18,258 bases of DNA from a virus, in UHGV virus genome UHGV-0272440; one strand, written 5' to 3'. This document shows positions 1,704-18,258 of this stretch, in pieces. A program made the position numbers and the translations under genes. Under the pieces are notes generated by a model. It saw only the letters and a program-made list of their open reading frames with translations. It made no database searches and was not told where the DNA came from. Position 1 is the stretch's first letter; every line of letters begins with the position of its first letter.

Positions 1704-1737
1704 CTTAAATCTTATCAACGGTAGACATACAAAGCCC

Positions 1738-1778
1738 ATCGTTGTAAAAATCTTATCCATATTTTTTGAAAAACGCAA
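1738..1778 (-). promoter_or_regulatory. Late promoter pR'-like with initial-transcribed pause element (candidate Q engagement site)
   Basis: Minus strand reads TTGCGT (-35, 1773..1778) - 17 bp - TAAGAT (-10, 1750..1755), followed by AACGAT (1738..1743), the same hexamer I recall as the sigma70 pause-inducing element of lambda pR'. Located directly after the Q stop and about 40 nt before the terminator. Confidence 0.5.
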
Positions 1779-1809
1779 GCATCATGTCGTCATCTTCGGC
1801 GAAAACCAT

Positions 1810-2562: not shown

Positions 2563-2575
2563 GCTCGTTCTCCAC

Positions 2576-3571
2576 TTACGCCAGTACGCCTATTGCCAGC
2601 GCACGATCGATAAAACGAAATATCAGCTCCAGCTGGGAACCATACTTCTCTTCAAATGCCACGGTATCCGCATGCAGCTCGTCGTGATGCTTTCTGCACA
2701 AAGGCAACACAAAGAGGTCATGCGCTTTTGTTCCCATTCCACCCTGACCGTGACCTATCAGGTGGTGGGGATCATCAGCAGGCTTTCCACAACATGCGCA
2801 CGGCTGCGTCTTAACCCAGCGCGTGTACTTTTCATTAACCCAGCGGCGACGTTTTGGGCGTAACATAAAAGACTCCGGCGACTCCGGATCCACTTTCAGC
2901 GCCAGCACCTTTTTCGCTTTATCCTGGATGATGCTGGTGGCAGGAACCGAAGGCACAAGGTCACTCTCCCGGGTGACAGACGGCACAACAGGCTTCGGTA
3001 ATCTCAGTGCCTTACGGGCTGCGCTTTCCGGTAAGGCATCCGCCAGATCATTACGAACCAGCCACCAGCACAGTTCCGGCATTGTCACAACGTGACTATC
3101 ATCAAAACCGAGATCCCGACGCACAACAGATAACACCCAGCGGGCACAGTTATCCGTTGCCATTGATTCCAGCCGTTCCGTGAACTGATCGCGCAGCTGG
3201 TTATCGCAGTGCCAGCACAGACGGATTGCGCCCGGCGCGTGTCGCATTGTGGTCATGTTCTCGCTGTGCCAGTCGGAATGAGGCCACTGGCAGCCTTTTT
3301 CACGAAGTAACCAGCTTTCAAGACATTCCACGCCACCAGCACGACGAATCACTGCCTCATTGCGGAACACGGCCCGAACGGCAGGATCATCCGCCAGCGG
3401 TTGTGATGCCGCCGGAACGGCACCACTGGCGAAAGATGAATAACGTTCCGGCTCAGGCTCCAGCAGGACACGCCCCTGCATAAACAGGGGCATCAGCTCT
3501 GAACCTGGCCTGAACAATACGATCCCCATACGCGGGGCAATTTCAGGAGTCAGTAGTGCTCTCACGGTCAC
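2576..3571 (-). CDS. DUF968 (YdfU-like) protein with C-terminal HNH-like/zinc-binding motif
   Basis: 331-aa ORF; C-terminal 'CACCGKPADDPHHLIGHGQGGMGTKAHDLFVLPLCRKHHDELH' resembles an HNH/zinc-finger nuclease motif. GTG start at 3571 with no good Shine-Dalgarno, so the N-terminal boundary is uncertain. Confidence 0.55.
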   Translation of the reverse strand: MTVRALLTPEIAPRMGIVLFRPGSELMPLFMQGRVLLEPEPERYSSFASGAVPAASQPLADDPAVRAVFRNEAVIRRAGGVECLESWLLREKGCQWPHSDWHSENMTTMRHAPGAIRLCWHCDNQLRDQFTERLESMATDNCARWVLSVVRRDLGFDDSHVVTMPELCWWLVRNDLADALPESAARKALRLPKPVVPSVTRESDLVPSVPATSIIQDKAKKVLALKVDPESPESFMLRPKRRRWVNEKYTRWVKTQPCACCGKPADDPHHLIGHGQGGMGTKAHDLFVLPLCRKHHDELHADTVAFEEKYGSQLELIFRFIDRALAIGVLA

Positions 3572-3572
3572 C

Positions 3573-4382
3573 TCAATGAACGGTATCGAGCAGCTTTAAC
3601 AGCTCAGGGAATCGGGATTCGAAGAAATGCGGCTGCGTCTCGCGCGGATTTGCGGGACTGGTGATGTTCTTGCCGAACATGCAGCCTTTCGCCGTCAGCG
3701 ACCAGAATTTTTTGATGTTGTTAATCGCAGTGCGGCTGTATCGTTCACGTTGTTCAACGATCCCCAGCTTCGCCATCTGGTGATATGCCTGATTAGCTGT
3801 CAGGCGGATACCATACTGCTTCAGCAGTGCACTCAATGATAGCGTGGGGCGGCTTGAGCCATCAGGCGCGTCAGCAGGAGCATCAATGGCATAGCGCGGT
3901 GCCAGATTCGGTAAGCCAACAGCCTCCTGGAGTTTCTGACAGGCACCAAGCACTGAAGAGTTAGACAGGTTTAACTCCCGGCGCATAAAGTCCAGCAGGA
4001 TCACGCCAGCCTGCATCTTGTCAGCAGCCTGTCCGGATAATTTTTCCGGTGCGCTGGTTACCATATCGAAAGTACGGATCACCTTCAGATGGAATGACGG
4101 GCTGATCCACATTGCATAGGCATACACCAGTTCCTTGCAGACATACGTTCCCCGTTCATTTCCCCCATGAATCACACTCACCGGGTCAACACCCAAATTC
4201 TGGGTGTTGGTCAATTCATGAACAAGCTCAACAGTTTGTTGGCTGGAAAGAAACTTTCCCGGCTCCTTGGTTCTGGCATTTGCACCAGATGCTACTGCTG
4301 CGCGATGCAGATCGTTCAGGCTGTAACGCCCATAAGCATCACGACGAACTTCAATACCATCAATGACCATCAGATTATTCAT
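3573..4382 (-). CDS. KilA-N domain protein (antirepressor-like)
   Basis: N-terminal region 'IDGIEVRRDAYGRYSLNDLHRAAV...GTYVCKELVYAYAMWISPSFHLKVIRTF' matches the KilA-N fold family. Start set at the ATG at 4382 (AAGGAGA upstream) rather than the ATG at 4415, which overlaps rusA. Confidence 0.65.
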   Translation of the reverse strand: MNNLMVIDGIEVRRDAYGRYSLNDLHRAAVASGANARTKEPGKFLSSQQTVELVHELTNTQNLGVDPVSVIHGGNERGTYVCKELVYAYAMWISPSFHLKVIRTFDMVTSAPEKLSGQAADKMQAGVILLDFMRRELNLSNSSVLGACQKLQEAVGLPNLAPRYAIDAPADAPDGSSRPTLSLSALLKQYGIRLTANQAYHQMAKLGIVEQRERYSRTAINNIKKFWSLTAKGCMFGKNITSPANPRETQPHFFESRFPELLKLLDTVH

Positions 4383-4401
4383 ACTTCGTTTCTCCTTTTG
4401 C

Positions 4402-4791
4402 TCAGGCGGCTGCACCCGCCGTTTTCTCGTACTTACTGATAGTGATCTCGACCTTCCCTTCCGGGATAACCGGTCCCCACTCCACCAGCATTCTTTTCAC
4501 CTGACTGTCGTCTTCCCACACACCCGCGTGGGTCAGGGCGTCAAACAGCGCCTTGTTATAGTTGTCCAGATCGCGGATCCGGTTATCTGGAGGAAACAAC
4601 ACGATCGCCACTGAAGCAGGTGCCGACGTTGGTTTCGGCAGGCGACGTAACTGCTCAACTATTGCTGCGCACGCCGCGCTCTGGAATTTTCGCCCCGCCG
4701 CGCTTATCAGACTCTTACCAGCAAACGCCCCTTTGTTGGGGTGTCGCCAGTACGTGTTCACGCTGGGCGGAAAAGGCAGGATCAGCTTCAT
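4402..4791 (-). CDS. rusA: Holliday junction resolvase RusA
   Basis: 129-aa ORF with the RusA hallmarks 'LPFPPSVNTYWR' and acidic catalytic cluster 'RRDLDNYNKALFDALTHAGVWEDDSQV'. Start overlaps the upstream stop (ATGA). Confidence 0.85.
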   Translation of the reverse strand: MKLILPFPPSVNTYWRHPNKGAFAGKSLISAAGRKFQSAACAAIVEQLRRLPKPTSAPASVAIVLFPPDNRIRDLDNYNKALFDALTHAGVWEDDSQVKRMLVEWGPVIPEGKVEITISKYEKTAGAAA

Positions 4792-5114
4792 ACTTTCAGG
4801 TCCCTCTCATGTAACCAGTGGGTTGCACGCAGCCTTGCGTTTTCCTCACCGGCAAGCAGTGCGCGGATAATCCCGACCGCCTCGCTGTCGTCGTCCTTCA
4901 CCGCGGTATGAAGCGTTATCCCCCGGGCCACGCCACGCTTTATCGTGATGACGCCTTTTTTCTCCAGTGCGCGAAGATGCTCCACCGCTGCATTCACTGA
5001 ACGGTATCCCAGCATGGTTGCCACCTCCTGATTGGTTGGCGGGAAGCCACGTTCTTTCTGATAAGAAATCAGCATATCCAGCACCTGCTGCTGGCATTGA
5101 GTTAACGTCGTCAT
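4788..5114 (-). CDS. LexA N-terminal DNA-binding-domain protein lacking the S24 peptidase domain
   Basis: 108 aa; aligns with the LexA winged-helix region: 'LTQCQQQVLDMLISYQKERGFPPTNQEVATMLGYRSVNAAVEHLRALEKKGVITIKRGVARGI' versus LexA '[63 protein letters not shown]'. No Ser/Lys catalytic domain follows. Confidence 0.7.
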   Translation of the reverse strand: MTTLTQCQQQVLDMLISYQKERGFPPTNQEVATMLGYRSVNAAVEHLRALEKKGVITIKRGVARGITLHTAVKDDDSEAVGIIRALLAGEENARLRATHWLHERDLKV

Positions 5115-5764
5115 GCCGCCATCTCCCTGACCAGTTTTTCCGCCTGCTGGCGAACCTGCGCCAGAAACGCCTCACCACATGCCTCAAGTTCATCGCGCCC
5201 GATGTAGCTGATTGCCGGTCCCTTCCAGGTCTTGTCAAAAACAGCAATAGCACCAGCGAAAAAAGCTCCTGTCGGTACCTGCTTCTCGTCTTTCGGGATA
5301 AACCAGACAGGCAGTTCAAAACCAATACGCCCGCGAATAAAAGCAATATGATCTGCATCTTCCGGCCACCACACTTCGCTGGTGGCAGCTTTGATCAGGA
5401 AAACATAGCGCCCGCCCTTATCACGCATGGCACTGGCATGTTTCATGATGTAACGCATGCCGGTGATGTATTGCCCCTCATGCTGACTGGCGCGGCTGTA
5501 TGGGGGATTACCAAAGGCAGCACCTTTAAGCTCCGCAAGACGTTCTGACCAGTCATGCGCAAGCGCGTTGTCTTCCGCCGTGTAATACGCGGCACATTTG
5601 GCGTTATCACCGTCAGTGAACAGATCCAGAACAAACGGGCCAAACAGGGTGTTAATTCCCCAGAAAATGTTGTCCGGCGTGCGCCACTGATCGCCCACTT
5701 CCTTCAGTTCATGGGCTGGTTTGTTCCGCAGTTCCACCAGCGCCTGGCAATATTTATTACTCAT
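5111..5764 (-). CDS. Phage N6-adenine DNA methyltransferase (Dam-type, NPPY motif), orphan
   Basis: Contains 'WRTP' and 'FGNPPYS' motifs typical of the phage Dam family. Start set at the ATG at 5764, which overlaps the upstream stop (TAATG), rather than the ORF-track start at 5797. Confidence 0.8.
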   Translation of the reverse strand: MSNKYCQALVELRNKPAHELKEVGDQWRTPDNIFWGINTLFGPFVLDLFTDGDNAKCAAYYTAEDNALAHDWSERLAELKGAAFGNPPYSRASQHEGQYITGMRYIMKHASAMRDKGGRYVFLIKAATSEVWWPEDADHIAFIRGRIGFELPVWFIPKDEKQVPTGAFFAGAIAVFDKTWKGPAISYIGRDELEACGEAFLAQVRQQAEKLVREMAA

Positions 5765-6252
5765 TAAGCCCCCACGTAATTCCCTGACAGATACCACTCT
5801 TCACCCGATGCAGCGCGCTTGCTGCTTTTCCGTAAGCACCGCTCACGACGCGCCAGAAAATTGTTTCGTTCTGGCTGGGAGTGGCTTTCACGGAATGCCG
5901 CCATCCACACGGTTGCAGCACGACGGTATAAGCCCCTGGACTCCAGTTCTTCCGCCTGACGGGTCAGGCACAAAATCACACGGGGATCGTTAGTGCCGAC
6001 ATAGAAATTGCGCACAGGTCTGGTTTCACGAACTGGTTGTGGTTCCGGTTCCTGCGCTCTCTCAGTCAGGCGCGGGAAATGTCTGCGTGTATCTCCTTCA
6101 CAACGGTGAGCCACACGCCCACTCTGACGTAACTTGCTTGCTGACTGCAGAACGCGCTGCCGTGAGTAACCTGCAAAAGCATCCGCAATGTCTCCGGAAG
6201 TACACCCCGGATGGGCTTCAATGAATTTCTGAACTTCATTCAAAATACTCAT
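5764..6252 (-). CDS. Hypothetical regulator, N-terminal winged-helix-like with possible PerC-like C-terminal motif; YfdN-like by size and position
   Basis: ORF of about 162 aa. ATG at 6252 preceded by AGGGGG; the GTG at 6258 overlaps the upstream stop. Motif 'ELESRGLYRRAATVWMAAF' is reminiscent of PerC/Pch regulators; recalled from memory, low certainty. Confidence 0.45.
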   Translation of the reverse strand: MSILNEVQKFIEAHPGCTSGDIADAFAGYSRQRVLQSASKLRQSGRVAHRCEGDTRRHFPRLTERAQEPEPQPVRETRPVRNFYVGTNDPRVILCLTRQAEELESRGLYRRAATVWMAAFRESHSQPERNNFLARRERCLRKSSKRAASGEEWYLSGNYVGA

Positions 6253-6254
6253 AA

Positions 6255-7247
6255 TCACCCCCTGAATCCTGCCGGGATCTGGCTGTAGTCCACGTTGTCG
6301 TAACTGGCTTTGAAGTACGGGTCTTCGCGTTTTTCTGTGTACGTGCTGACGGACGGCGATAAGCGCAGGGAAAGCTCATCCCATTTTTCCCGCAGCTTCG
6401 ACGGGCTGAGCACGTTACGGCACCAGAACGGATCGCGGCTGACGCGGCTGTACATCTCGCAGATTTGTTTGTGAGTACGCCCATCCTGTACACACATCAG
6501 GCGAATTTCGTTTGCCCAGGCTGTCCAGTTCGGTTCTTTAGGACGTACCACTTCGCCGTCACATTCGGCGGCCTGCTCGTACAGAGCGATGATTTTTTTC
6601 CAGAGCCACTGTGCGCAGGTCAAATCATCCTGCGTTCCCCACTGGCGCTTTTTAGGGCTGAATACAACCGCATCAGGATGGCGAGTTAAAAAATCCTGTT
6701 CAGCCATCTGCGTGTCCGGTTGCGAAGCGTCCGGACGAGAAGAGGTTTTATTCTCTGTAGTAATCTCTGTTGTATTCTCTGTAAGATCATTGGGCCATTT
6801 TGACCCGATGACAGCGTGTCGTTTTGAACCAATGGATCGTGTCATTTTGCGCTCATCCATCAGGTCACTTTGACCCGATGGAGAGGTGCATTTTGACCTG
6901 ATGGATTCGTTCACTTTGACCTCTTCTAAAAGCTCACTTTCATAGTTGATCGTGTAGAAGTTGGTCATGTCACGCTTCGATTTATTGAGTTGCTCGCGAC
7001 GCAAAACCCCAAGTGATTTCAGGCTTGCAAATGTGCGTTTCAGAGTGGACTCTGACCAGAACGGAAACTGCTCCAGCCACTGTTCTGTCGTGTTATAAAC
7101 CCAGCGAATTCCGCCATGCTCAGTGCCTGAATTCGTTTCATTCAGCCAGTAATGAAGCTGCTGCAACACAATTGCCTCATTCAGACCAATACGGCATGCA
7201 AGATCACGATTTATCACAATGGGCTGGGATGTCATTAACAGGCTCAT
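6255..7247 (-). CDS. Phage replication initiation protein (O-like functional analogue) containing ori iterons
   Basis: 330-aa ORF with GGAGG Shine-Dalgarno; N-terminal helix-turn-helix-like region; 6 to 7 direct repeats embedded in the coding sequence (lambda O/ori arrangement). The called product is positional and architectural, not a homology match. Confidence 0.6.
   Translation of the reverse strand: MSLLMTSQPIVINRDLACRIGLNEAIVLQQLHYWLNETNSGTEHGGIRWVYNTTEQWLEQFPFWSESTLKRTFASLKSLGVLRREQLNKSKRDMTNFYTINYESELLEEVKVNESIRSKCTSPSGQSDLMDERKMTRSIGSKRHAVIGSKWPNDLTENTTEITTENKTSSRPDASQPDTQMAEQDFLTRHPDAVVFSPKKRQWGTQDDLTCAQWLWKKIIALYEQAAECDGEVVRPKEPNWTAWANEIRLMCVQDGRTHKQICEMYSRVSRDPFWCRNVLSPSKLREKWDELSLRLSPSVSTYTEKREDPYFKASYDNVDYSQIPAGFRG
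6795..6945. repeat. Iteron array (candidate replication origin) inside the initiator gene
   Basis: Direct repeats with consensus about CAYTTTGACCYGATGG: 'ccattttgacccgatg' (6795..6810), 'tcactttgacccgatgg' (6865..6881), 'gcattttgacctgatgg' (6888..6904), 'tcactttgacctc' (6911..6923), plus degenerate copies near 6819..6835, 6842..6858 and 6933..6945. Confidence 0.75.
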
Positions 7248-7468
7248 GCCGCACCTCCGAGATGCTTCATGTTTTTTCCGGAGCGAAAGGCTATAAGCGG
7301 CATACTGACGCGGTAATTACGGCCCAGCGGTTCACAAATCACCTTCTGGCATTCACGGTCAACCAGGCTAACACGTAGAACATGCCCTGCAGGCGTGGTG
7401 TACCACTGACCCGGACGAGGACAACGGAAAGTATGATTGGTAAACCGTTTGAAAATATTCCGGATCAT
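7244..7468 (-). CDS. hypothetical small protein (74 aa), translationally coupled on both sides
   Basis: ATG at 7468 overlaps the upstream stop (ATGA) and its own stop overlaps the initiator ATG (ATGA). No recognisable family. Confidence 0.4.
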   Translation of the reverse strand: MIRNIFKRFTNHTFRCPRPGQWYTTPAGHVLRVSLVDRECQKVICEPLGRNYRVSMPLIAFRSGKNMKHLGGAA

Positions 7469-8616
7469 TTGCGCCCCCTTACCTCTGAAGGGTTCAGCGA
7501 CAAATTTATGAGACTGGCCAGTAGCGCCGCGTCGTTGATGCGGTCATACAGACTTACAGCCAGCGGGGATTCGGCTTTTGCCAACATGGGATAAAGCTGC
7601 TGCAGCCAGACCTGATGAATTGATGAAATGTAGGAATAGAGAACGCTGGCGTTATGTGCAACGTCGCTCGGTACAGAGGGCTTTGAAAGCTGTTTCTCCA
7701 TCTGGTTAAAGGCATTGATGTATGCCTCTTTGAACTGGGCAGCACGTTTACCCGTGAAACCCATAGCAAGAAACGCAAAACCGTCGCGTGTGATTTGGTA
7801 GCAAGGAAGTTTGCGACCTGTGCAATCAGTGTAATCACTCACCGAAAAATTGCGGGCAGTGAATGATGCTGAGCATTCAAGCGTGCGGATCTTTTTCAGT
7901 ACATCGTCATGACGTTTAGAGAAGAAGTCAGCAACAGCCAAAGAAGATGTAACAGCCTGACCATCAACGATGGCAATTTCAGGTTGAGAGATGGTTGGGA
8001 GAGTAGTCATGGTGACAGCCCCGGTAGTCAGTTTTTTAGAAAACTCACCACATGGGACGCCAATCACAGAGGTGGTGAGACGTACAGGGTTGGCGTTACC
8101 GGAGACTACCGAACCCGGCCCGACCGAAGTCGGCCCTGTACGCCACACCATAATTTGGGCGTAGCAATGCTCATGACACGAAAAAACCGCATGAGCGCGG
8201 TTATGCTCAGTAATCAATTTCAGGACGCCAATCCCGGCACCCGCTTTATAAGGTGCCTGAACAGTGTAACGTCCCGGAATGGCAGAATCAATGTGCTGGT
8301 GGTCCTTCACACTCAACAAAATCACGCCTGAATTTCCACAAAGGACTAAAGCACTCATGCGGGTAGTCTTTGCGAAGATAGATAACGCGCTGTGTTTCTG
8401 GCTCCCAACGAATAACATGAACATAAAGTCCTCTTCCGTCACGAAACCAGCGGTTAAGTTCCTGCACAACTCGCCCCCCACAGTCAGGTAAAGTTCTCTG
8501 TGGTTACTTACAGCCAGGTGATTTGGTAATCTGCATTCATGCCGTAACAACAGGTGTGCAGCGACACTGACCACCAGCTGTTGCGACAAACGGTTATTTG
8601 CCGTTAAACTGTTCAT
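7465..8616 (-). CDS. Rha-domain phage regulatory protein with an uncharacterised N-terminal region of about 200 aa
   Basis: C-terminal half ('IAIVDGQAVTSSLAVADFFSKRHDDVLKKIRTLE...YQITRDGFAFLAMGFTGKRAAQFKEAYINAFNQMEKQL') matches the Rha/phage-regulatory domain. The ATG at 8616 overlaps the upstream stop (ATGA) with GGAGA upstream. The internal ATG at 8010 is an alternative start that would give a roughly 180-aa Rha protein. Confidence 0.55.
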   Translation of the reverse strand: MNSLTANNRLSQQLVVSVAAHLLLRHECRLPNHLAVSNHRELYLTVGGELCRNLTAGFVTEEDFMFMLFVGSQKHSALSIFAKTTRMSALVLCGNSGVILLSVKDHQHIDSAIPGRYTVQAPYKAGAGIGVLKLITEHNRAHAVFSCHEHCYAQIMVWRTGPTSVGPGSVVSGNANPVRLTTSVIGVPCGEFSKKLTTGAVTMTTLPTISQPEIAIVDGQAVTSSLAVADFFSKRHDDVLKKIRTLECSASFTARNFSVSDYTDCTGRKLPCYQITRDGFAFLAMGFTGKRAAQFKEAYINAFNQMEKQLSKPSVPSDVAHNASVLYSYISSIHQVWLQQLYPMLAKAESPLAVSLYDRINDAALLASLINLSLNPSEVRGRK

Positions 8617-9164
8617 GCGTTAGTTTCTCCACAGACACAAAACGCCACGACGCCCGGAGCTGCACACTCGCGGGCGTCACTCTTTTCTGGAGCGCAGAAA
8701 ATTTTGTAGACCAGTGCCGCATGCTCCTGGAGCTTCGAAATTGACAGATACAATTCATCATTAATTGCTGTCTGCTCGTGTGGCTCCACTACCCCATCTT
8801 CGATTGCCGAACGAATCTGCTTTGAGTAACTCCCGATCTGTTCGATGACTTCCAGCAGGCGCTGGTTTATATCTGCGTTCTCTACTTCCTCAATTTCAGG
8901 AAGCGATACAAACACCCCACCAGCAGACTGTGCGACAGCATCCGCAATGTAGTGAGTGCCAGCAGCACGCTGTAAAATCATTGCCCATCCCAGCGGGAAA
9001 ATCTGATCGCCATCTGCACGAAGGCGGTTGAATAAAGCGTTCTCTGTAACATCCAGCCACTCAGCAGCTTCAGCGTAACCCCCTGGCAACGCCGCGATGG
9101 TTTTTCTGACAGCTTTCACGTACCACTCAGGCTGTTTTTCCACTTTCCAGTGATGATTACCCAC
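8613..9164 (-). CDS. Putative CII-like/YdaT-family regulatory protein
   Basis: 183-aa ORF immediately downstream of cro. GTG start with strong AGGAGG Shine-Dalgarno 6 nt upstream. Family assignment is from position and recollection of YdaT-like proteins following cro-like genes; not verified. Confidence 0.4.
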   Translation of the reverse strand: MGNHHWKVEKQPEWYVKAVRKTIAALPGGYAEAAEWLDVTENALFNRLRADGDQIFPLGWAMILQRAAGTHYIADAVAQSAGGVFVSLPEIEEVENADINQRLLEVIEQIGSYSKQIRSAIEDGVVEPHEQTAINDELYLSISKLQEHAALVYKIFCAPEKSDARECAAPGVVAFCVCGETNA

Positions 9165-9417
9165 GGCTTACCTCCTGTTCCTGTGGTTTAAACCCATTCT
9201 GGTTTTGGCTAGATTGAAAACGTGCCGGATAAAGAATCTGCATTTCGCTGATTTCACCCTTAAAAAAATTGGCCAGACGTTCTGCAAGATCGATAGATGG
9301 AATTTGTTCCAGTCTTTCAATACGACTCAGCGTCGCTGGATTGACCTGAACGCCAGCAGCAACATGCTGCAAAGTAAATCCGTGCGCCTTACGCACATTC
9401 CGTAATGGTGATTGCAT
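9157..9417 (-). CDS. Cro-like helix-turn-helix transcriptional regulator
   Basis: 86 aa; XRE-type HTH 'FTLQHVAAGVQVNPATLSRIERLEQIPSIDLAERLANFF'; GGAGGT Shine-Dalgarno; divergent from the repressor gene. Confidence 0.7.
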   Translation of the reverse strand: MQSPLRNVRKAHGFTLQHVAAGVQVNPATLSRIERLEQIPSIDLAERLANFFKGEISEMQILYPARFQSSQNQNGFKPQEQEVSRG

Positions 9418-9514
9418 ATAACCTCCACATATTGCGTGATGAGCATATTATTTCACGCAAATATTTTGCGCAAGTTGATTTGCTTAACGCGCAATAAAGA
9501 AATGTAATAAACGC
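9418..9514. promoter_or_regulatory. Divergent immunity promoter/operator region (OR-like)
   Basis: Inverted repeat TTGCGTGA...TCACGCAA (9435..9463), self-complementary TTGCGCAA (9469..9476) and GCGCAA (9492..9497). Candidate cro promoter on the minus strand: TTGCGC (-35, 9471..9476) - 17 bp - TAATAT (-10, 9448..9453), overlapping these repeats. Confidence 0.5.
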
Positions 9515-10207
9515 ATGAACATAGGAAACCGAGTCAGACAACTTCGCCAGGCGAAGAACATGAAAATCGCCGATCTCGCTGAAGCAATAGGAGTGGATGC
9601 GGCGAATATCTCACGCCTGGAAACAGGTAAGCAGAAACAATTCACTGAACAAGCCCTGAGTAATATTGCCAAGAGCTTAGGTGTTGATATTGCTGATCTC
9701 TTTACCTCAGACTTCAAAAGTAATACTGTATGTAAAAACAGTATTAGTGAGGATGTTGCGCAGGTGAAGGATGTATTCCGTATTGAAATGCTGGATGTCA
9801 GTGCCAGTGCGGGAAATGGCCTTATCCAGGGCGGTGATGTCATTGATGTGATTCATGCCATTGAATACAGAACTGATAATGCTGTATCGATGTTTGGTGG
9901 ACGGCCAGCCAATCACATTAAAGTTATCAACGTTCGTGGGGACAGTATGTGTCCAACCATTGAGCCAGGAGATCTCATCTTCGTTGATGTCAGTATCAAT
10001 CAGTTTGATGGAGATGGTATCTATGTATTTGGTTTTGATGATAAAATTTATGTCAAACGACTGCAAATGATACCTGACAAACTACTGGTGATTTCTGATA
10101 ACCAGATTTACCGTGAATGGGGAATTACCAGCGAAAATGAACACCGGTTTATGGTCTTTGGAAAGGTCTTAATCAGCCAGTCACAAACCATTAAGCGACA
10201 CAATTAA
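9515..10207 (+). CDS. CI-type prophage repressor (HTH plus S24 LexA-like autopeptidase domain)
   Basis: 230 aa; N-terminal HTH 'MKIADLAEAIGVDAANISRLETGK'; C-terminal S24 motifs 'VRGDSMCPTIEPGDLIFVD' (Ser nucleophile) and 'YVKRL' (Lys). Confidence 0.85.
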   Translation: MNIGNRVRQLRQAKNMKIADLAEAIGVDAANISRLETGKQKQFTEQALSNIAKSLGVDIADLFTSDFKSNTVCKNSISEDVAQVKDVFRIEMLDVSASAGNGLIQGGDVIDVIHAIEYRTDNAVSMFGGRPANHIKVINVRGDSMCPTIEPGDLIFVDVSINQFDGDGIYVFGFDDKIYVKRLQMIPDKLLVISDNQIYREWGITSENEHRFMVFGKVLISQSQTIKRHN

Positions 10208-10227
10208 CCCTTACCTCCTCATCAATT

Positions 10228-10249
10228 AGCCACCCAAAGGTGGCTTTTC
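10228..10249 (+). terminator. Rho-independent terminator after the repressor gene
   Basis: Stem AGCCACC (10228..10234), loop CAAA, stem GGTGGCT (10239..10245), then TTTT (10246..10249). Confidence 0.65.
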
Positions 10250-10259
10250 ATTACCCTTT

Positions 10260-10301
10260 AAATTGCATATCTCGCAACAAAAACACTTGCATAATGCGCA
10301 A
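10260..10301 (+). promoter_or_regulatory. Candidate early-left promoter/operator (pL/OL-like)
   Basis: Two 15-bp units of form TTGCA-N5-CGCAA ('TTGCATATCTCGCAA' 10263..10277; 'TTGCATAATGCGCAA' 10287..10301) sharing the CGCAA half-site with the OR repeats; -10-like CATAAT at 10290..10295. The promoter assignment is an inference. Confidence 0.35.
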
Positions 10302-10715
10302 CTTCATTTTATCTTTCTTTCCAGACAAACAAACAAGGTACTAACAAAATTTGGTTGTAACACGGCGTATGGCACATGCGTCGTTAGCGGTCTGGGGACG
10401 TTAAAGGGGACAATCCACTCCTTGCTCGGGCAAACAAACCAGGTAGCCGGAATGTGCAAGTCAATGATGATGCTGATAAGACGCCTAACCAGCGTGGCGA
10501 TTCGGTTTGACGCCTGGGAAGAGACCAGGGTGCAACGATGAGGGCATTTATGGAGCCGCGACAAAGTGTGGTGCCGTAACTGGCTAAGTGCTCTCAGCGT
10601 TGTGGTAATCCGCGAAATGGCGCGGCGGTAAGTATGGCGGGGTTACTCTTTCCCCGTTGAGGACACCGGATTGTCAGGTTGACCATACGCCTGAGTGACA
10701 ACCCCACCACAACAG

Positions 10716-10772
10716 CCACTGCTTTGGCGGTACCAGTTTGTACCCTTGCTTCCGGCTGGTACCGCTCTTTTT
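10716..10772 (+). ncRNA. DicF-like small RNA ending in an intrinsic terminator
   Basis: 'CTTTGGCGGTACCAGTTTGTACCC' closely parallels the 5'/seed region of E. coli DicF as I recall it ('GTTTGGCGGTATCAGTTTTACTCC'). Followed by a perfect 10-bp hairpin GCGGTACCAG (10727..10736) / CTGGTACCGC (10756..10765) and TCTTTTT. The 5' boundary is approximate. Confidence 0.5.
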
Positions 10773-10778
10773 ACAAAA

Positions 10779-10859
10779 CAGAGAAGAGCATCACCGGACG
10801 ACGGGCTCATAACCCAATCCATCCGGGCGGCAGCCACCGCAGGTGTTCTTCTCTGTTTT
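10779..10859 (+). terminator. Second large hairpin followed by a U-run (terminator/attenuator-like) in the early-left leader
   Basis: 12-bp stem CAGAGAAGAGCA (10779..10790) / TGTTCTTCTCTG (10844..10855, one G-U pair) enclosing a structured 53-nt loop, followed by TTTTGT. Confidence 0.4.
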
Positions 10860-10909
10860 GTGGAGAAACTAATCGGCCTTGCAGGGTCGATATGATGAGG
10901 AGCAGCAAA

Positions 10910-11272
10910 ATGGCTAGCGAACGCAGTACTGATGTGCAGGCATTTATCGGGGAGCTGGACGGCGGCGTATTTGAAACCAAAATCGGCGCAGTTCTCAGTG
11001 AAGTCGCTTCCGGTGTGATGAACACGAAAACCAAAGGTAAGGTCTCACTCAACCTGGAAATCGAACCATTTGATGAGAACCGTGTGAAAATCAAACACAA
11101 ACTCTCATATGTTCGCCCGACTAACCGCGGGAAAATTTCTGAAGAAGACACCACCGAAACACCGATGTATGTCAATCGCGGTGGTCGCCTGACTATTCTG
11201 CAGGAAGACCAGGGACAATTACTGACTCTTGCCGGTGAACCTGACGGAAAACTCCGCGCAGCAGGTCATTAA
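10910..11272 (+). CDS. hypothetical early-left protein (YfdP-like by size and position)
   Basis: 121-aa ORF from the ATG at 10910 with GAGGAG Shine-Dalgarno 8 nt upstream. The ORF-track start at 10679 would run through the terminator hairpins and is rejected. Confidence 0.55.
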   Translation: MASERSTDVQAFIGELDGGVFETKIGAVLSEVASGVMNTKTKGKVSLNLEIEPFDENRVKIKHKLSYVRPTNRGKISEEDTTETPMYVNRGGRLTILQEDQGQLLTLAGEPDGKLRAAGH

Positions 11273-11337
11273 TATCGTTCTTAATTAACTGATTATTTAT
11301 CTCATCACTGAATATCTTTATATAGTGAGGACTTATT

Positions 11338-12162
11338 ATGTCTCAGAACTTAGACGCAACCGCAATTAATCAAATCCATGCTCTTATTTCTGCTCAGGAT
11401 GTTAATGAAATTATCAGTAAGATTGGTGCCGATGCTGTGGCATTGCCTGAGAATTTCCGCATTCATGATCTGGAAAAATTTAATTTAAATCGCTTCCGTT
11501 TCCGTGGTGCGCTTTCCACTGCCAGCATTGATGACTTTACCCGTTATTCTAAAGATCTTGCAGATGAAGGCACCCGCTGCTTTATCGATGCCGATAATAT
11601 GCGAGCCATCAGTGTGCTTAACCTGGGTACTATTGATGAACCAGGTCACGCAGATAACACCGCCACTCTCAAACTGAAAAAGACAGCACCGTTCTCTGCC
11701 CTGTTGTCTGTTAACGGCGAGCGTAACTCCCAGAAGTCACTAGCAGAATGGATTGAAGACTGGGCCGACTACCTTGTGGGCTTTGATGCTAATGGTGACG
11801 CCATTCAGGCAACCAAAGCGGCTGCGGCGATCCGTAAAATCACAATTGAAGCGAACCAGACCGCTGATTTTGAAGATAATGACTTCAGCGGCAAACGCTC
11901 CCTGATGGAGTCTGTCGAAGCGAAGACCAAAGACATTATGCCAGTGGCATTTGAATTTAAATGCGTTCCGTTTGAAGGTCTGAAAGAACGTCCGTTTAAA
12001 TTACGCCTCAGCATTATCACTGGCGATCGTCCTGTACTGGTTCTGCGCATTATTCAGCTGGAAGCGGTGCAGGAAGAAATGGCTAACGAATTTCGTGATC
12101 TGCTTGTTGAGAAATTCAAAGACAGCAAAGTAGAAACCTTTATTGGTACTTTCACCGCCTGA
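11338..12162 (+). CDS. yfdQ: DUF2303/YfdQ-like protein
   Basis: 274-aa ORF with GTGAGGA Shine-Dalgarno. Length and N-terminus match my recollection of E. coli CPS-53 YfdQ; memory-based, no search run. Confidence 0.5.
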
Positions 12163-12176
12163 TTTCATTACTGCAA

Positions 12177-12198
12177 ATGCCCCTGCGGGGGCATTTAT
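12177..12198 (+). terminator. GC-rich hairpin (possible intrinsic terminator/attenuator) between early genes
   Basis: Perfect 9-bp stem AAATGCCCC (12177..12185) / GGGGCATTT (12190..12198) with loop TGCG. No extended U-run beyond the stem, so terminator function is uncertain. Confidence 0.3.
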
Positions 12199-12289
12199 GG
12201 AAACGTAATTAACTCAATAATCACCGAATGGTGAGGGCTTCCTTTTACCAGAATTCAGCGCGGTGCAGTGCATATACGTGGAGAACAAA

Positions 12290-12826
12290 ATGTCATTTAT
12301 TAAAACTTTTTCCGGGAAGCATTTTTATTATGACAAGATAAATAAAGACGACATCGATATTAACGATATCGCGGTTTCCCTTTCAAATATCTGTCGCTTT
12401 GCCGGTCATCTTTCGCACTTCTACAGCGTCGCCCAACATGCGGTTCTTTGCAGCCAGCTGGTGCCGCAGGAATTTGCTTTTGAAGCGTTAATGCATGATG
12501 CAACAGAAGCGTATTGCCAGGACATTCCCGCACCACTGAAACGTCTTCTTCCTGACTATAAACGGATGGAAGAAAAAATAGACGCCGTAATCCGTGAGAA
12601 ATACGGGTTACCCCCGGTTATGAGCACGCCAGTGAAATATGCCGATCTCATCATGCTGGCAACCGAACGCCGCGATCTCGGACTTGATGATGGCTCTTTC
12701 TGGCCTGTATTGGAAGGTATCCCGGCAACAGAGATGTTCAAAGTTATTCCACTGTCGCCAGGCCATGCCTATGGGATGTTTATGGAACGTTTTAACGAGT
12801 TATCGGAGTTACGCAAATGCGCATGA
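12290..12826 (+). CDS. yfdR: HD-domain phosphohydrolase (YfdR-like 5'-deoxynucleotidase)
   Basis: HD motifs 'SVAQHAV' and 'ALMHDATEAY'. 178 aa from the ATG at 12290 with GGAGA Shine-Dalgarno; the ORF-track start at 12263 is a GTG. Confidence 0.7.
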   Translation: MSFIKTFSGKHFYYDKINKDDIDINDIAVSLSNICRFAGHLSHFYSVAQHAVLCSQLVPQEFAFEALMHDATEAYCQDIPAPLKRLLPDYKRMEEKIDAVIREKYGLPPVMSTPVKYADLIMLATERRDLGLDDGSFWPVLEGIPATEMFKVIPLSPGHAYGMFMERFNELSELRKCA

Positions 12827-13167
12827 ATGTTATCGAAATGGAAGGGTTTCTTCGCGGGAAATGTGTACCGCGAGATCTGAAAGTGAATGAAACAAATGCT
12901 GAGTATCTGGTGCGTAAATTCGATGAAGTACGTGCTGAGGCTCGCAACGAGGGTATTAACTATACCGCAAGCCGTCTTGCTGCTGCTTTCAATCACGGAT
13001 TTATCAATAAGCCTTTGGCTGAAGTTTTCGACGTTACACGCATGATTCTGTCAGCAAAAGAAGAGTTAGCTAATGAATCGCATCCGATTGATGGCCTGTC
13101 CGGTGAATATGCAGAGAAATCCCTTGAAGAATGGGCGGAACAGATTCGCAAAGGAGTTCAGTCATGA
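12817..13167 (+). CDS. hypothetical protein (YfdS-like by position)
   Basis: 116-aa ORF overlapping the upstream stop; GGAG about 8 nt upstream. No recognised domain. Confidence 0.5.
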   Translation: MRMNVIEMEGFLRGKCVPRDLKVNETNAEYLVRKFDEVRAEARNEGINYTASRLAAAFNHGFINKPLAEVFDVTRMILSAKEELANESHPIDGLSGEYAEKSLEEWAEQIRKGVQS

Positions 13168-13397
13168 GCATCCGAACTGAACATGGATTTGGTCCTTCAA
13201 CGGTCGAAGTCGAATGGCTTGATGATTGCCCTAAGTGCCAGCACGGCAAAGCCAAGGTAACAGGATGGTCGGTAACCAAAGATTCTTTGTGGGCGGGTGA
13301 TGAGGCCGTTTGTTCCAAATGCGGTCACAAAGGTGAAATCGATGCTGATGGAGAGAATGCCTGGGTGGAATGGGACGAAATCGAGGAGGCACAATGA
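13164..13397 (+). CDS. small Cys4 zinc-ribbon protein
   Basis: 77 aa from the ATG at 13164 (AAGGAG Shine-Dalgarno, ATGA overlap with upstream stop). Two CxxC pairs: 'CPKC' and 'CSKC'. Confidence 0.55.
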   Translation: MSIRTEHGFGPSTVEVEWLDDCPKCQHGKAKVTGWSVTKDSLWAGDEAVCSKCGHKGEIDADGENAWVEWDEIEEAQ

Positions 13398-14032
13398 GCA
13401 AAATCGACATCGACACACTGGCGCTGCGTGAGGCGGCAGAACGTGCAATTCCGGCAATGGAACGCCTGTTAATGTTGCCAGTTGATGATGATCTGATAAG
13501 TGAACAGGAACTTAAAGATTACGGTGTGGATATTGATGCGCTCAACGCCTTCAAATTTCTGGCCGGACCAGAAACCGTGCTGGCGCTTCTGGATGAACGG
13601 GAAAGAAACCAGCAATACATCAAACGCCGCGACCAGGAGAACGAGGATATTGCGCTTACGGTTGGGAAGCTGCGCGTTGAGCTTGAAGCAGCAAAATCAA
13701 AACTCAACGAGCAGCGTGAGTATTACGAAGGTGTTATCTCGGATGGAAGTAAGCGCATTGCAGAACTGGAAGCACGGGAAATAAAACCAGCCAAAGGTGA
13801 AGTTCTTGTCGTTGTTTCTGGTTTTACTGGTTGCGGAAAAAGCGCCATTGCCGGGGAAATAGAAATCGCGATGAAGGCTATTGGTGTACCGGTTCAGTGG
13901 ACTAATGGCGATGCGGAAAAGCGCATGACAGGAGCTGACTGGTTGACAGCGATTGAGATGTACAAACCAACAGTGCGCATCGTGGAAGTTAATGTGCCAC
14001 GCGCCGCAGGCATTCGCATCAAAGGAGAGTGA
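13394..14032 (+). CDS. coiled-coil protein, Ead/Ea22-like, with a Walker-A-like motif near the C-terminus
   Basis: 212 aa from the ATG at 13394 (GAGGAGG Shine-Dalgarno, ATGA overlap). Charged heptad-like segment 'LRVELEAAKSKLNEQREYYEGVISDGSKRIAELEARE'; 'SGFTGCGKS' fits GxxxxGK[ST]. The Ea22-like label is from memory. Confidence 0.5.
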   Translation: MSKIDIDTLALREAAERAIPAMERLLMLPVDDDLISEQELKDYGVDIDALNAFKFLAGPETVLALLDERERNQQYIKRRDQENEDIALTVGKLRVELEAAKSKLNEQREYYEGVISDGSKRIAELEAREIKPAKGEVLVVVSGFTGCGKSAIAGEIEIAMKAIGVPVQWTNGDAEKRMTGADWLTAIEMYKPTVRIVEVNVPRAAGIRIKGE

Positions 14033-14033
14033 G

Positions 14034-14225
14034 ATGAACGGACAAATATCAATTGTTCGACCGGGAGCATGTGACGATCGCGAGATACGAATGATTATTC
14101 GTCTGGCGATGGGGAAAACAATAACTGCTCTCATTACTCCTGAAAATCTCGCATTAGCATTAACAGGAAAGTCAGACCTGCCAGTAGAGCTAAAGCTGCG
14201 AAATATTGAGATTAAAGTGAAATAG
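14034..14225 (+). CDS. hypothetical small protein (63 aa)
   Basis: ATG at 14034 with AAGGAGAG Shine-Dalgarno, directly after the upstream stop. No recognised domain. Confidence 0.45.
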   Translation: MNGQISIVRPGACDDREIRMIIRLAMGKTITALITPENLALALTGKSDLPVELKLRNIEIKVK

Positions 14226-14227
14226 TT

Positions 14228-14980
14228 ATGAATACTCTTACCAAAGAATGGTTACAGAACACGATTACCGGAATTGAGTCGATAATAGACGATAAATCGT
14301 TTGTATGTAGTGAAATAGCATTCGAAATAGGTCAGGTTAACAACATACTTACCGCATTTAAAATTACACTGGCATCGCTGGCAGCAGTATCGGATGAACG
14401 AGCAGCCTATGAATTATTTATGGAGAAGCGTTTCGGGGAATCTGTAGATCGCCGTAGGGCAAAAAATGGCGATAGAGAATACATGGCATGGGATATGGCG
14501 CTTGGCTGGATTATCTGGTGTCACCGCGCCGCCATGCTTCAGGGTAGCCAACCTGTAAGCCAAACTTACAACTTGCCAGAATTAATCGAAGGCATGGAAG
14601 TTTCCATTGATGTAAGCACTTGTGATGCTGATTTAGGTAATCGCTATTTCGGCACCGTCACCGAGGCGTTAGAACTTGATACAGCCAAGAATGGTTACAT
14701 CCTCCTGGTTCAGGACGCAGAGCCAAACTTCGATGTAAATGGCAACTCTCCGGGAACTCCGGATAGTTGGATAAGCTGTAGTGATCGAATGCCTGAAAAG
14801 GGCCAGAACGTGCTTATTTCGGTGAATTTCGATAGCTCTCTGGTTGAACCGCTAATATGCTCCGCACGCTATACCGGAAGCACCTTTCGGCGCGGAGATG
14901 CAACGATTAAGCCGGGTAATGGTATTGAGCAAGCAACTCACTGGATGCCGCTACCGGAACCGCCGCAGGAGGTGAAGTGA
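14228..14980 (+). CDS. hypothetical protein with possible DUF551-like C-terminal domain
   Basis: 250-aa ORF; C-terminal 'WISCSDRMPEKGQNVLIS...HWMPLPEPP' resembles the DUF551 pattern as I recall it. Uncertain. Confidence 0.45.
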   Translation: MNTLTKEWLQNTITGIESIIDDKSFVCSEIAFEIGQVNNILTAFKITLASLAAVSDERAAYELFMEKRFGESVDRRRAKNGDREYMAWDMALGWIIWCHRAAMLQGSQPVSQTYNLPELIEGMEVSIDVSTCDADLGNRYFGTVTEALELDTAKNGYILLVQDAEPNFDVNGNSPGTPDSWISCSDRMPEKGQNVLISVNFDSSLVEPLICSARYTGSTFRRGDATIKPGNGIEQATHWMPLPEPPQEVK

Positions 14981-15552
14981 TGAACAACTTAATGATCGAC
15001 CTTGAGACAATGGGGAAAAATAAGGATGCACCGATCGTTTCCATTGGCGCGGTGTTCTTCACTCCAGAAACCGGAGACATCGGACAAGAATTCTATACGG
15101 TTGTCAGCCTGGACAGTGCTATGGAGCAAGGGGCCACACCTGACGGCGATACCATCCTGTGGTGGTTGAAACAAAGCCCTGAAGCACGAGCTGCAATCTG
15201 TATTGATGATACTTTGTCGATCAGCGATGCACTCTCTGAACTGAGCCATTTCATTAATCGGCACGCAGGCAATACGAAATATTTAAAAGTTTGGGGTAAC
15301 GGGGCCACCTTCGACAACGTAATTTTACGCGGAGCTTATGAACGAGCAGGACAAATCTGCCCATGGGCGTACTGGAATGATCACGATGTACGCACGATCG
15401 TTACGCTTGGGCGTTCCATCGGATTCGCCCCCAAAATGGACATGCCTTTCGATGGCGAACGGCACAACGCCCTGGCTGATGCTCGTCATCAGGCAAAATA
15501 TGTTTCAGCTATCTGGCAGAAGTTAATTCCTGCCACCAGCACAGAATTATGA
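14980..15552 (+). CDS. DnaQ-like 3'-5' exonuclease (DEDDh family)
   Basis: Exo motifs 'MIDLETMG' (D-x-E), 'VWGNGATFDNVIL' (D) and 'HNALADARHQ' (H-x4-D). ATG at 14980 with AGGAGGTG Shine-Dalgarno; GTG at 14977 is the alternative. Confidence 0.7.
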   Translation: MNNLMIDLETMGKNKDAPIVSIGAVFFTPETGDIGQEFYTVVSLDSAMEQGATPDGDTILWWLKQSPEARAAICIDDTLSISDALSELSHFINRHAGNTKYLKVWGNGATFDNVILRGAYERAGQICPWAYWNDHDVRTIVTLGRSIGFAPKMDMPFDGERHNALADARHQAKYVSAIWQKLIPATSTEL

Positions 15553-15588
15553 TTTTCCCGGGTGCAGCCGGTTTTGATGGAGAAAATT

Positions 15589-15861
15589 ATGAACACCTTG
15601 TTTTTACTGATGGCTGAATTCAATACCCCAAACATTGAGCTGTCAGCTGTATGCCAAAAGTATTTCGGTATGAGCCCTAACACAGCAGAAGCGAAAGCAA
15701 ATGCATGCCAGTTGCCGATCCCGACTTATCGTGTTGGTACATCACAGAAAGCAAAGCGCTGCATCAACATTCAGGATCTTGCTGAATATATAGATAAACG
15801 GCGTGAAGAAGGCAGAATTGAATGGGAGAGGGTAAGAACAAATAGGAAAATAAATAACTAA
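15589..15861 (+). CDS. small DNA-binding protein, excisionase-like/PrtN-like
   Basis: 90 aa from the ATG at 15589 (GGAGA Shine-Dalgarno). Last gene of the early-left operon, the usual xis position. Similarity to PrtN-type proteins is from memory. Confidence 0.45.
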   Translation: MNTLFLLMAEFNTPNIELSAVCQKYFGMSPNTAEAKANACQLPIPTYRVGTSQKAKRCINIQDLAEYIDKRREEGRIEWERVRTNRKINN

Positions 15862-15873
15862 TCTCACAAAAAA

Positions 15874-15895
15874 CCCGCTTCGGCGGGTTAGTTTT
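15874..15895. terminator. Bidirectional Rho-independent terminator between convergent genes
   Basis: Stem CCCGC (15874..15878), loop TTCG, stem GCGGG (15883..15887), flanked by an A-run upstream (U-run on the minus strand) and TTAGTTTT downstream. Confidence 0.7.
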
Positions 15896-16322
15896 CATCT
15901 TTATAATTCTGGGCAATTCGCGCCAGATAGCTCATCACATCATGTTTTCTTGCTTTTTCATGTGCATCGGGATACATAATAGCAATGAGTGAATATTTAT
16001 TCTCATAAAGCTCACCTTGGACATACACAAGACAAGCATCATTATCAGGATCACCTTTCTTGCAGACCCTATCCGGTTGTGGAAGTTTCTCGGGAAACTT
16101 GTTTGGCGGTAGACAAAGATGGATATGCATCAACCCAGCCCGAAAAGCACCATAAGGCTGAGTATACGCAACGTCCCTACCGAAATAATGCGGAAGCTCA
16201 CCGGTTGCTTTGTATCTCTTGAAATCATCAATGATAGAAGACTCTAGCTCCGGGAATTTGAGAAAAATTTCATCAAAAAATTCAGCTCTAGTTTCTGGAT
16301 TAATAGAGACTTCTAGATGCAT
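15888..16322 (-). CDS. YafO-family toxin-like protein (ribosome-dependent mRNA interferase family)
   Basis: 144 aa; blocks parallel to E. coli YafO as recalled: 'HYFGRDVAYTQPY' vs 'DIFGRDALYDDSF', 'HIHLC' vs 'HIHLA', 'ACLVYVQG' vs 'AHLVYCQG', 'SLIAIMYPDAHEKAR' vs 'LLIAILKPEPHKLAR'. Lies in AT-rich DNA. Confidence 0.6.
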   Translation of the reverse strand: MHLEVSINPETRAEFFDEIFLKFPELESSIIDDFKRYKATGELPHYFGRDVAYTQPYGAFRAGLMHIHLCLPPNKFPEKLPQPDRVCKKGDPDNDACLVYVQGELYENKYSLIAIMYPDAHEKARKHDVMSYLARIAQNYKDEN

Positions 16323-16338
16323 GGTCGTCCGCTATCGG

Positions 16339-16878
16339 TTAGTGAAATTGCATCGATTTTAGCTTATTTGATGTGTGACTAGCTAGTGCTGCAATTCCAG
16401 CAAGATCCGCGCGCCCGCTAAAAGTAACAGTTTCTTTAAATATGCTCTTTATGTAATTGTTAAGGCGAGTGACAGATGAGCGAGCTTTAGCAATATGACG
16501 CCAGTAAACCTTCAGTTCTGACCTGATAAATTCAGGCAGAGGCGATTCAATTGTACGCTTCACTTCTTCTTCAAAAGCACGCAGGAACATTTCGCATGCC
16601 TCTGTCGTATCTGTCCCGTTTTTGGAAACAAACTCGCGAGCATCTTGGCTATTAAGATCAATCAAACAGATATAGTAGTCATCTGCTGCAATTGTTAACT
16701 TTTGCAAGATCTCCTTACCCTCTTCCATTTTGCGTGAGAATTCCTCAACAGAAGGAGAGTACTCAAAAGGTTTAGCAATCACAGGGGCTGGCTGGATGAT
16801 GAACTCCTGCGCCATAGCAGCAGGACAAGCCAGAGGCCCGCACAATGCAGCAAAAGTAATGGCGTTAAACGGATTCAT
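16339..16878 (-). CDS. hypothetical protein with hydrophobic N-terminus (possible signal peptide), upstream partner of the YafO-like gene
   Basis: 179 aa; ATG with GAGGT Shine-Dalgarno; N-terminus 'MNPFNAITFAALCGPLACPAAMAQE' is hydrophobic with an AxA-like site but no basic n-region. No resemblance to YafN/Phd-type antitoxins. Confidence 0.5.
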   Translation of the reverse strand: MNPFNAITFAALCGPLACPAAMAQEFIIQPAPVIAKPFEYSPSVEEFSRKMEEGKEILQKLTIAADDYYICLIDLNSQDAREFVSKNGTDTTEACEMFLRAFEEEVKRTIESPLPEFIRSELKVYWRHIAKARSSVTRLNNYIKSIFKETVTFSGRADLAGIAALASHTSNKLKSMQFH

Positions 16879-17481
16879 GGCAACCTCAACTGTTTTACTT
16901 ACTAAGCAATAGCCTTAGCTATTTGGAGCAAAGTCTATAACCGCGGTTGTTTTTGGTCAATCAGATAAGGTAGCAAATGGTGCTTTATGAATAGATATGA
17001 ATAGAAAGAGCAAAACTTCAGGTTCCCAATAGGCTCCCACAAAGTGTATAACTAGTTGTTTTTCAAAAACGGTACATCCTATCGAGCATTGGTGCAACGC
17101 TAAACCAACCACTCCAGTGAACGTCAGTTTTTTCAGGCATTGCGCTGGTTTGGTTGATTTTTTGCATTTCAGAATTACCGTGCATTTTCAAATGTAGAGA
17201 TTATTTTATCGATATATCATGGAGTTATGTTATTCAGCATCACTGTTCAGGAGGCTCAATAACGGGGTACTATACCATAACAACAGGAAGCGCCTGTCTC
17301 ATTGCAAAAGAAAAATGAGATCCTCTCAAGGCATGAAGCTCTCACGAAGTGAAGATCTAATCTTATTAGATGTTAGCGTTGTGAAAAGCAATGATAAACA
17401 ATACAGATTCGACGATAAATAAAAATCACACATTAAACTCCGGTGATATCTCTCCCTGCTAATAGCACTGATAGAGAAAAA

Positions 17482-17509
17482 AGAACCCAATAAGCATTGG
17501 GTTCTTTTA
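17482..17509 (-). terminator. Rho-independent terminator downstream of the IS1-disrupted gene
   Basis: 10-bp stem AGAACCCAAT (17482..17491) / ATTGGGTTCT (17496..17505) with loop AAGC, followed on the minus strand by a U-run (complement of the A-run at 17476..17481). Confidence 0.6.
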
Positions 17510-17545
17510 TGTAATACCTTTCATACCATCGAAGAACTTCACATA

Positions 17546-18120
17546 TTATTTCTCCGATTTAACCCCGAATAAATCATAAATTAATTTAGAAGTACCTGTA
17601 TATATTTTAATCTTTTCCTTTGAGTTTGGGTCAAACGACTTAGCAAAGTCAATTAATTTCGGTGCAGCATCTCGCATTTTGCTTAAAATATCAGGGGCGA
17701 GCGTTCCTTCATTCACCAGATGTGACATCTTATCCAGATAGCCATCAAAATTCATTTCTCCCCCATCTGCCAGACGCTTCATTTCTCCCAGGTACTTCTT
17801 CATATCACGTTGAGATAACTCTTCAAACTGAGCTGTCAGATAGTTCCCATTATGATCATTAATATTCACTTTTTCTGCTCCTGCTAAATCTGTGTAGGCA
17901 CTAGAGTATGAAAGTGAAATCAACAGCGAAGCGAATAATTTTAAGCTGTTGTCATCATATTTCTGACATGCATTAACAAACGTTAAAAAACCAGAACCTA
18001 TTGCTTGCAAATGTATATTCGCTAAAGGTTCATTATCTTTAGATTCCTCATAAAATAGCTGAACCGTGGAGGGAAGGCCATTCTTGGTTTCTACATCAAA
18101 AGTATATCGTTCTATGGGCG
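17546..18120 (-). pseudogene. 3' fragment of an unknown-function gene truncated at its 5' end by IS1
   Basis: The minus-strand reading frame stays open from 18010 up to the IS1 boundary at 18120/18121 and into IS1; it contains no ATG before the boundary, only a TTG at 18010. AT-rich, no recognisable domain. Confidence 0.5.
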
Positions 18121-18258
18121 GGTGATGCTGCCAACTTACTGATTTAGTGTATGATGGTGTTTTTGAGGTGCTCCAGTGGCTTCTGTTTCTATCAGCTGTC
18201 CCTCCTGTTCAGCTACTGACGGGGTGGTGCGTAACGGCAAAAGCACCGCCGGACATCA
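18121..18258 (+). mobile_element. IS1 insertion sequence, left end (continues beyond the window)
   Basis: 18121 onward matches the IS1 left terminus as I recall it: inverted repeat GGTGATGCTGCCAACTTACTGAT followed by the insA leader and coding start. Confidence 0.93.
18176..18258 (+). CDS. insA: IS1 InsA (5' partial)
   Basis: From the GTG at 18176 the translation reads (M)[26 protein letters not shown], the known InsA N-terminus; cut by the window end. Confidence 0.9.

Follow-up and report, generated by a model that had tools for sequence, protein, structure and literature searches.

What did IS1 interrupt at the right-hand end of this stretch of DNA (the window, 18,258 nucleotides, catalogued as UHGV virus genome UHGV-0272440), and on which side of the boundary between mobile element and host chromosome did the interrupted gene stand? 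The window breaks off within the insertion sequence, which adjoins a minus-strand reading frame that lacks a beginning, so that neither the gene nor its owner is evident at first reading. The account that we regard as highly probable is that IS1 transposed into a solitary chromosomal gene of the DUF2713 family, situated between dusA and zur in Escherichia coli.

The last 138 bp of the window (18121..18258, plus strand) are the left end of IS1, that is, the first 138 of its 768 bp, or 18% of the element. All of them (138/138) coincide with positions 1-138 of an element of 768 bp in E. coli JMF1 that carries the annotation “IS1 family transposase,” a match that cannot be chance. The left terminal inverted repeat, GGTGATGCTGCCAACTTACTGAT (18121..18143, plus strand), can be read directly, is the same as the IS1 end in JMF1, and is mirrored at the right end of that copy as ...ATCAGTAAGTTGGAGTCATTACC. 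The insA frame begins ~55 bp within the left end, with a GTG at 18176; at the JMF1 locus (L021, position 20227) the annotated transposase coding sequence of IS1 starts at the corresponding place, and translation gives the first 27 codons of insA before the frame is cut at the window end (18176..18258, plus strand). A promoter-like site at 18128-18155 (plus strand) overlaps the left inverted repeat, at the place expected for the insA promoter, and insA reads away from the gene remnant. In its terminal inverted repeat, its insA start and all 138 bases, the visible part is without difference from the IS1A/IS1R-type copies of E. coli and Shigella; the JMF1 copy, which represents the same insertion, is 768 bp long with a 9-bp duplication, and its insAB' coding sequence is annotated with a programmed frameshift.

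The interrupted frame (17546..18120, minus strand) is the 3' remnant of a DUF2713 (yjbLM-type) gene and comprises codons 141-330 and the stop. It matches Pfam family PF10897 (DUF2713) with E = 1e-110 and 369 bits, the gathering cut-off being 27, while an intact allele reaches E = 1.4e-140 and 467 bits. This intact allele is a 330-aa protein (WP_000912575.1) encoded between dusA and zur in strain CP53; the 190 residues of the remnant are identical to its C-terminus, with 0 mismatches in the DNA, and the IS1 junction falls within codon 140 (Thr) of the 330-codon gene. On the minus strand the frame, with its TAA at 17546-17548, stays open through the IS1 boundary. The first possible start in the remnant is a TTG at 18010, which would give a product of just 154 aa, and upstream of it, as far as a stop inside IS1, the frame contains no ATG, GTG or TTG. 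The start used by intact homologues lies 140 codons upstream of the junction. A hairpin resembling an intrinsic terminator, with a 13-bp stem followed by a T-run (TTCTCT...), is found at 17479..17508 (minus strand), 38 bp downstream of the stop codon of the gene. No promoter-like site directed from IS1 towards the remnant was found. Since the remnant is left without promoter and start codon, and since no outward promoter-like site is present at the IS1 end, it is presumably a silent pseudogene, devoid of promoter, ribosome-binding site and start codon alike.

A preliminary description of the window, made from its letters alone, had recognized much of this. It placed the left end of IS1 and the start of InsA at 18121 onward, an assignment now confirmed by the 138/138 identity to the JMF1 element, and it described the minus-strand frame ending at 17546 as open across the IS1 boundary without an ATG, as is indeed the case. 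It also allowed for a genuine start codon just inside 18011..18120 in intact homologues; none is there, the true start being 420 bp further upstream. Its statement that the protein belongs to no recognizable family has to be withdrawn in light of PF10897, and the profile-HMM search that it suggested for the uninterrupted gene returns that same family.

With the window ending 138 bp into IS1, the remaining IS1, a second copy of CTATGGGCG and the 5' part of the gene would lie beyond 18258. IS1 usually generates a target duplication of 9 bp, and the 9 bp that adjoin the element here, CTATGGGCG (18112..18120), are most probably the left copy of such a duplication. The junction is present in this one complete chromosome at 309/309 bases, and the order there is CTATGGGCG, the 768-bp IS1, CTATGGGCG once more, the intact 5' part of the gene, and then zur. 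In uninterrupted alleles, CTATGGGCG has a single occurrence. The 5' part in JMF1 retains the first 140 codons intact (it is translated as 142, the last two representing the target duplication), a run of adenines within it has the full A8 length, and IS1 is the sole lesion of the JMF1 gene. For JMF1, the earlier proposals that 18112..18120 is a target-site duplication, and that the missing 5' portion would be either across IS1 or lost, are answered together: the other IS1 end, the matching 9-bp repeat and the 5' portion, whose presence had been suggested as a check, are all to be seen in JMF1, the last of them beyond IS1.

Over flank and IS1 together, JMF1 and the window differ at 1/1160 aligned bases, and the two insertions are likely identical by descent; the genome from which the window derives would be expected to have the same far side as JMF1. 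JMF1 has no prophage in dusA and hence is not the strain of the window. Among complete E. coli genomes searched by megablast with window positions 13000-18120, none exceeds 98.3% identity; exact-protein look-ups with three reading frames of the window led to no matching genome either, and a 31-mer spanning the junction is absent from the collections of viral, GTDB and JGI metagenome sequences. An independent IS1 insertion lies merely 4 bp away in strain 600029. Because the remnant has not diverged at all from an intact allele (100% identity), and because IS1 is the only lesion in JMF1, the event appears to be recent. In mechanistic terms, transposition of IS1 would have copied the target CTATGGGCG and parted codons 1-140 of the gene from codons 141-330, whereas the prophage 465 bp off integrated into dusA in a separate event. 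The gene that IS1 entered lies in an AT-rich interval (35% GC) with a promoter-island upstream region, is under weak constraint and is subject to loss by IS1, by slippage in the A8 run and by deletion.

A junction of this appearance may also arise when IS1 mediates an adjacent deletion or an inversion, or when two IS1 copies recombine, in which case the 5' part of the gene would be lost or relocated and no matching 9-bp repeat would be found. The window does end within IS1, its far side being beyond view, and E. coli chromosomes, with a median of ~10 IS1 copies and as many as 68, offer ample substrates for recombination. Such a history is nevertheless quite unlikely, as JMF1 shows at this very junction a simple insertion, its duplication perfect, in a sequence that departs from the window at that single base in 1160, and as all 17 other IS1 copies examined at the locus are likewise simple insertions with both flanks, the exception being wlxctx60, where IS26 follows. 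The same genome, JMF1, bears on the suggestion that the gene was already a pseudogene when IS1 arrived, through a frameshift from A8 to A7, such that IS1 landed in dead DNA. The A7 state occurs in 12/28 loci examined, including members of the tight allele group to which the window belongs (T16R, i.e. L001, together with L003 and L039), and T16R carries the frameshift and an IS1 together. JMF1, however, the only genome with the junction of the window, retains A8 together with an undamaged 5' part, and the remnant in the window is itself lesion-free and identical to an intact allele, so that we regard a prior frameshift as unlikely. One might finally ask whether the junction is real, given that the window includes just 138 bp of a multicopy repeat before it ends, as is typical of short-read contigs, and a contig end could have been chimerically extended into such a repeat. 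That the same junction recurs base for base, with a proper duplication, in an independent chromosome-level assembly makes an assembly artefact scarcely credible. Simple transposition of IS1 into the DUF2713 gene remains the reading to which we hold in what follows.

To whom, then, did this gene belong? Comparison of window positions 16880-17560 with the prophage-free strains CP53 and JMF1 gives continuous identity from 17082 rightwards and unrelated sequence leftwards. Positions 1-17081 are accordingly a lambdoid prophage in the 5' end of dusA, with its boundary at 17081/17082, and the chromosomal 5' end of dusA follows at 17082..17185 (minus strand), where alignment with CP53 and JMF1 recovers ~35 codons, with the start codon at 17185 and a translation beginning MHGNSEMQKINQTSAMPEKTDVHWSG... 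Together with the intergenic DNA, this beginning of dusA makes up the left flank of the gene, which is 99.9% identical to both CP53 and JMF1. The integrase end of the prophage and the rest of dusA fall outside the window. Prophages and islands have been described that integrate at this end of dusA (Farrugia et al., 2015; PMC4482086), and the element in the window ends, as these do, within the first ~35 dusA codons, which constitute their attachment region. Its genes, as taken from gene calls in related loci, include CI-like and Cro-like regulators, Ash/Rha, Dam, RusA, Ea22, a 3'-5' exonuclease, PrtN and YafO.

Several further features of the prophage may be recorded here. A tRNA-Met gene lies at the window start (28-103, minus strand). 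Rfam matches to the C4 antisense RNA and to the Hfq-binding RNA isrK, at 8068-8155 and 8180-8256 (both minus strand), overlap a same-strand 383-aa frame (7465-8616), apparently an Ash/Rha-type gene. In the dusA-proximal part of the prophage, a YafO-family toxin frame and a 179-aa frame occupy 15888-16322 and 16339-16878 (both minus strand); the latter precedes the YafO frame, has an N-terminus that resembles a signal peptide (MNPFNAITFAALCGPLACPAAMAQE), matches no Pfam family, and is not a recognizable antitoxin. The pair is widespread in related prophages.

The preliminary description had supposed that the disrupted gene sits in an AT-rich island and that IS1 may have inactivated part of a cargo system. 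The region is AT-rich, as was stated, with a GC content of 0.36-0.43 from ~15.6 kb to the window end, and the DUF2713 gene does seem to form one AT-rich block with the accessory genes that close the prophage. This block is not one island, since those accessory genes (GC 0.41-0.43) there adjoin the backbone dusA-zur interval (GC 0.35). Other observations that might be taken in favor of cargo are that distant homologues of the protein occur in mobile contexts, and that two “phage” families, PHROG 29005 and 28007, match the chromosomal DUF2713 gene; these families have probably absorbed the gene through predictions of dusA prophages that overrun into it. Against the idea that IS1 struck the cargo of a mobile island or prophage stand the boundary at 17081/17082, inside dusA, which leaves the remnant 465 bp outside the prophage, and the occurrence of the gene at the same dusA-zur site in 4245/5426 complete E. 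coli genomes (~78%, by megablast of the flank), in which it carries the annotation “DUF2713 family protein,” as well as in prophage-free genomes such as CP53, JMF1 and K-12. Conversely, five related loci (L012-L014, L017 and L020) have a prophage at the site and no DUF2713 gene, with zur ~420 bp from the prophage or dusA. In every related locus, zur follows. The gene, moreover, is solitary, with its own terminator-like hairpin and no partner genes, and its product has no match among the NCBIfam models and none at E ≤ 0.1 among the PADLOC defence profiles. The DUF2713 gene was therefore rejected as cargo of the dusA prophage, lying as it does outside the attachment boundary and showing no co-variation with the element; it is a backbone gene, and a cargo system inactivated by IS1 is highly improbable. 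We consider both this reading and that of an assembly artefact to be effectively excluded.

The insertion in the window is far from the only one in this interval. When the IS1 copies of 23 related loci were mapped on one reference (coordinates 837 to 1622; loci covered in the dusA-zur interval, L001, L021, L023-L032 and L047-L051), 17 distinct insertion points were found within 786 bp, 11 of them in the open reading frame and 6 upstream. The copies are in both orientations and are 92.6-100% identical to the JMF1 IS1; given these differing sequences and orientations, most of the insertions are independent events. Some 26 of 5426 complete genomes (~26/5426) carry an IS1 insertion at the locus. 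One related locus (L011) has another insertion sequence in the gene, the flanks of the IS1 in X14-3 overlap by 14 bp, and four short-read contigs (L006, L007, L009 and L010) break at a junction of the T16R type. The NCBI annotation pipeline PGAP lists pseudogenes as “DUF2713 family protein, incomplete” in strains such as JMF1, T16R, S171-1, 600029 and X14-3, and these concern the same gene and the same kind of lesion as that in the window; JMF1 has the very same site, whereas the sites of the other flagged strains are 4 to 600 bp away and are occupied by different IS1 sequence variants. A statistically enriched IS1 hotspot was considered and is unproven, the raw copy count being close to a naive uniform expectation in which ~62,000 chromosomal IS1 copies would place ~20 in such an interval, with the proviso that these copies are not independent events.

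Loss of one adenine provides a second route to inactivation. When the A-run was compared across L001-L045, the A7 and A8 states were both found within each of two tight allele groups, and, since each group has members of either kind, the A8-to-A7 frameshift appears to have arisen more than once. The A-run might therefore behave like a phase-variable tract.

In E. coli K-12, yjbL (b4047, 84 aa) and yjbM (b4048, 235 aa) are, on translation, two frames of one open reading frame (3322-4307 of the K-12 locus, L022), split because one A was lost from the A8 run, giving A7, at about codon 81. The K-12 genes and the interrupted gene in the window occupy the same zur-dusA locus and belong to the same protein family; they differ in the lesion, which in K-12 is a 1-base deletion in the A8 run at about codon 81 and in the window is IS1 at codon 140. 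The Pfam DUF2713 model has 235 positions and covers the YjbM part only, while intact alleles are 320-340 aa long. The pair yjbL-yjbM has been placed among young genes with no known function (PMC12218254), and the zur/yjbL region of K-12 has been listed as a promoter island, a class linked to H-NS complex formation (PMC3661553).

What kind of protein the gene encodes can be approached from its distribution and its variation. Its GC content is 0.34, versus 0.50 in the surrounding DNA; alleles diverge by 5-10% at the DNA level with dN/dS of 0.4-0.6, and an N-terminal 10-residue repeat varies in number, which accounts for lengths of 320-340 aa. When 1.84 billion cluster representatives were scanned in full with HMMER, 52 matched, for the most part fragments of the E. 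coli protein, and a word-indexed search returned 140, the named ones almost all from E. coli. A divergent allele, with ~48% amino acid identity, is found at the same dusA-zur site in some strains (L018, 8328-9332; L033, 6001-6894). Distant relatives are few, have 21-28% identity overall and 26-38% over the matched stretches, and share a conserved core, AKLDxFxQxITxxLW...DRxIFxF. For the C-terminal two-thirds of the protein a helical bundle is predicted (pLDDT 72.6); no specific or informative structural neighbors of this C-terminal model were obtained, a PDB profile search with the protein gave noise only, and the full-length AlphaFold model, at a mean pLDDT of 51, is unusable. Distant homologues lie in mobile contexts (L036, 1187-2380 and 3842-4777; L046, 1-943; L034, 4175-5455), some with ~100 extra N-terminal residues. 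Their neighbors include a pentapeptide/SopD-like frame with KfrA, hok with an AIDA autotransporter, and ISL3 or mutator transposases.

Taken together, these properties point to a gene that is dispensable, recently acquired and weakly constrained, and that tolerates or attracts IS1. A more specific proposal would be that the dusA-zur DUF2713 gene is a contingency-type locus, repeatedly switched off by A8 slippage and by IS1 if its product is costly or counter-selected in some hosts, and that the product might be a secreted factor or one that interacts with host or phage. The traits to be accommodated are those of a fast-evolving protein, near-confined to E. coli, with a low-complexity N-terminus of variable repeats and a predicted helical bundle at its C-terminus. 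A secreted or interacting factor would fit with the divergent alleles at the site and with the distant paralogues that lie near effector-like, autotransporter and plasmid genes. We nonetheless judge it very unlikely that the locus is of the contingency type.

What the window shows is, in the end, one more pseudogene made by IS1 in the ordinary way; PGAP already flags such cases in public genomes, and in itself it matters little. What it brings to attention is rather the setting. The K-12 names yjbL and yjbM, like the Pfam model DUF2713, stand for pieces of one open reading frame of ~330 codons; a gene that stands beside a dusA prophage, as this one does, is not to be counted as cargo of the prophage; and the dusA-zur interval of E. 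coli is a recurrent landing site for IS1, at which short-read assemblies can break.
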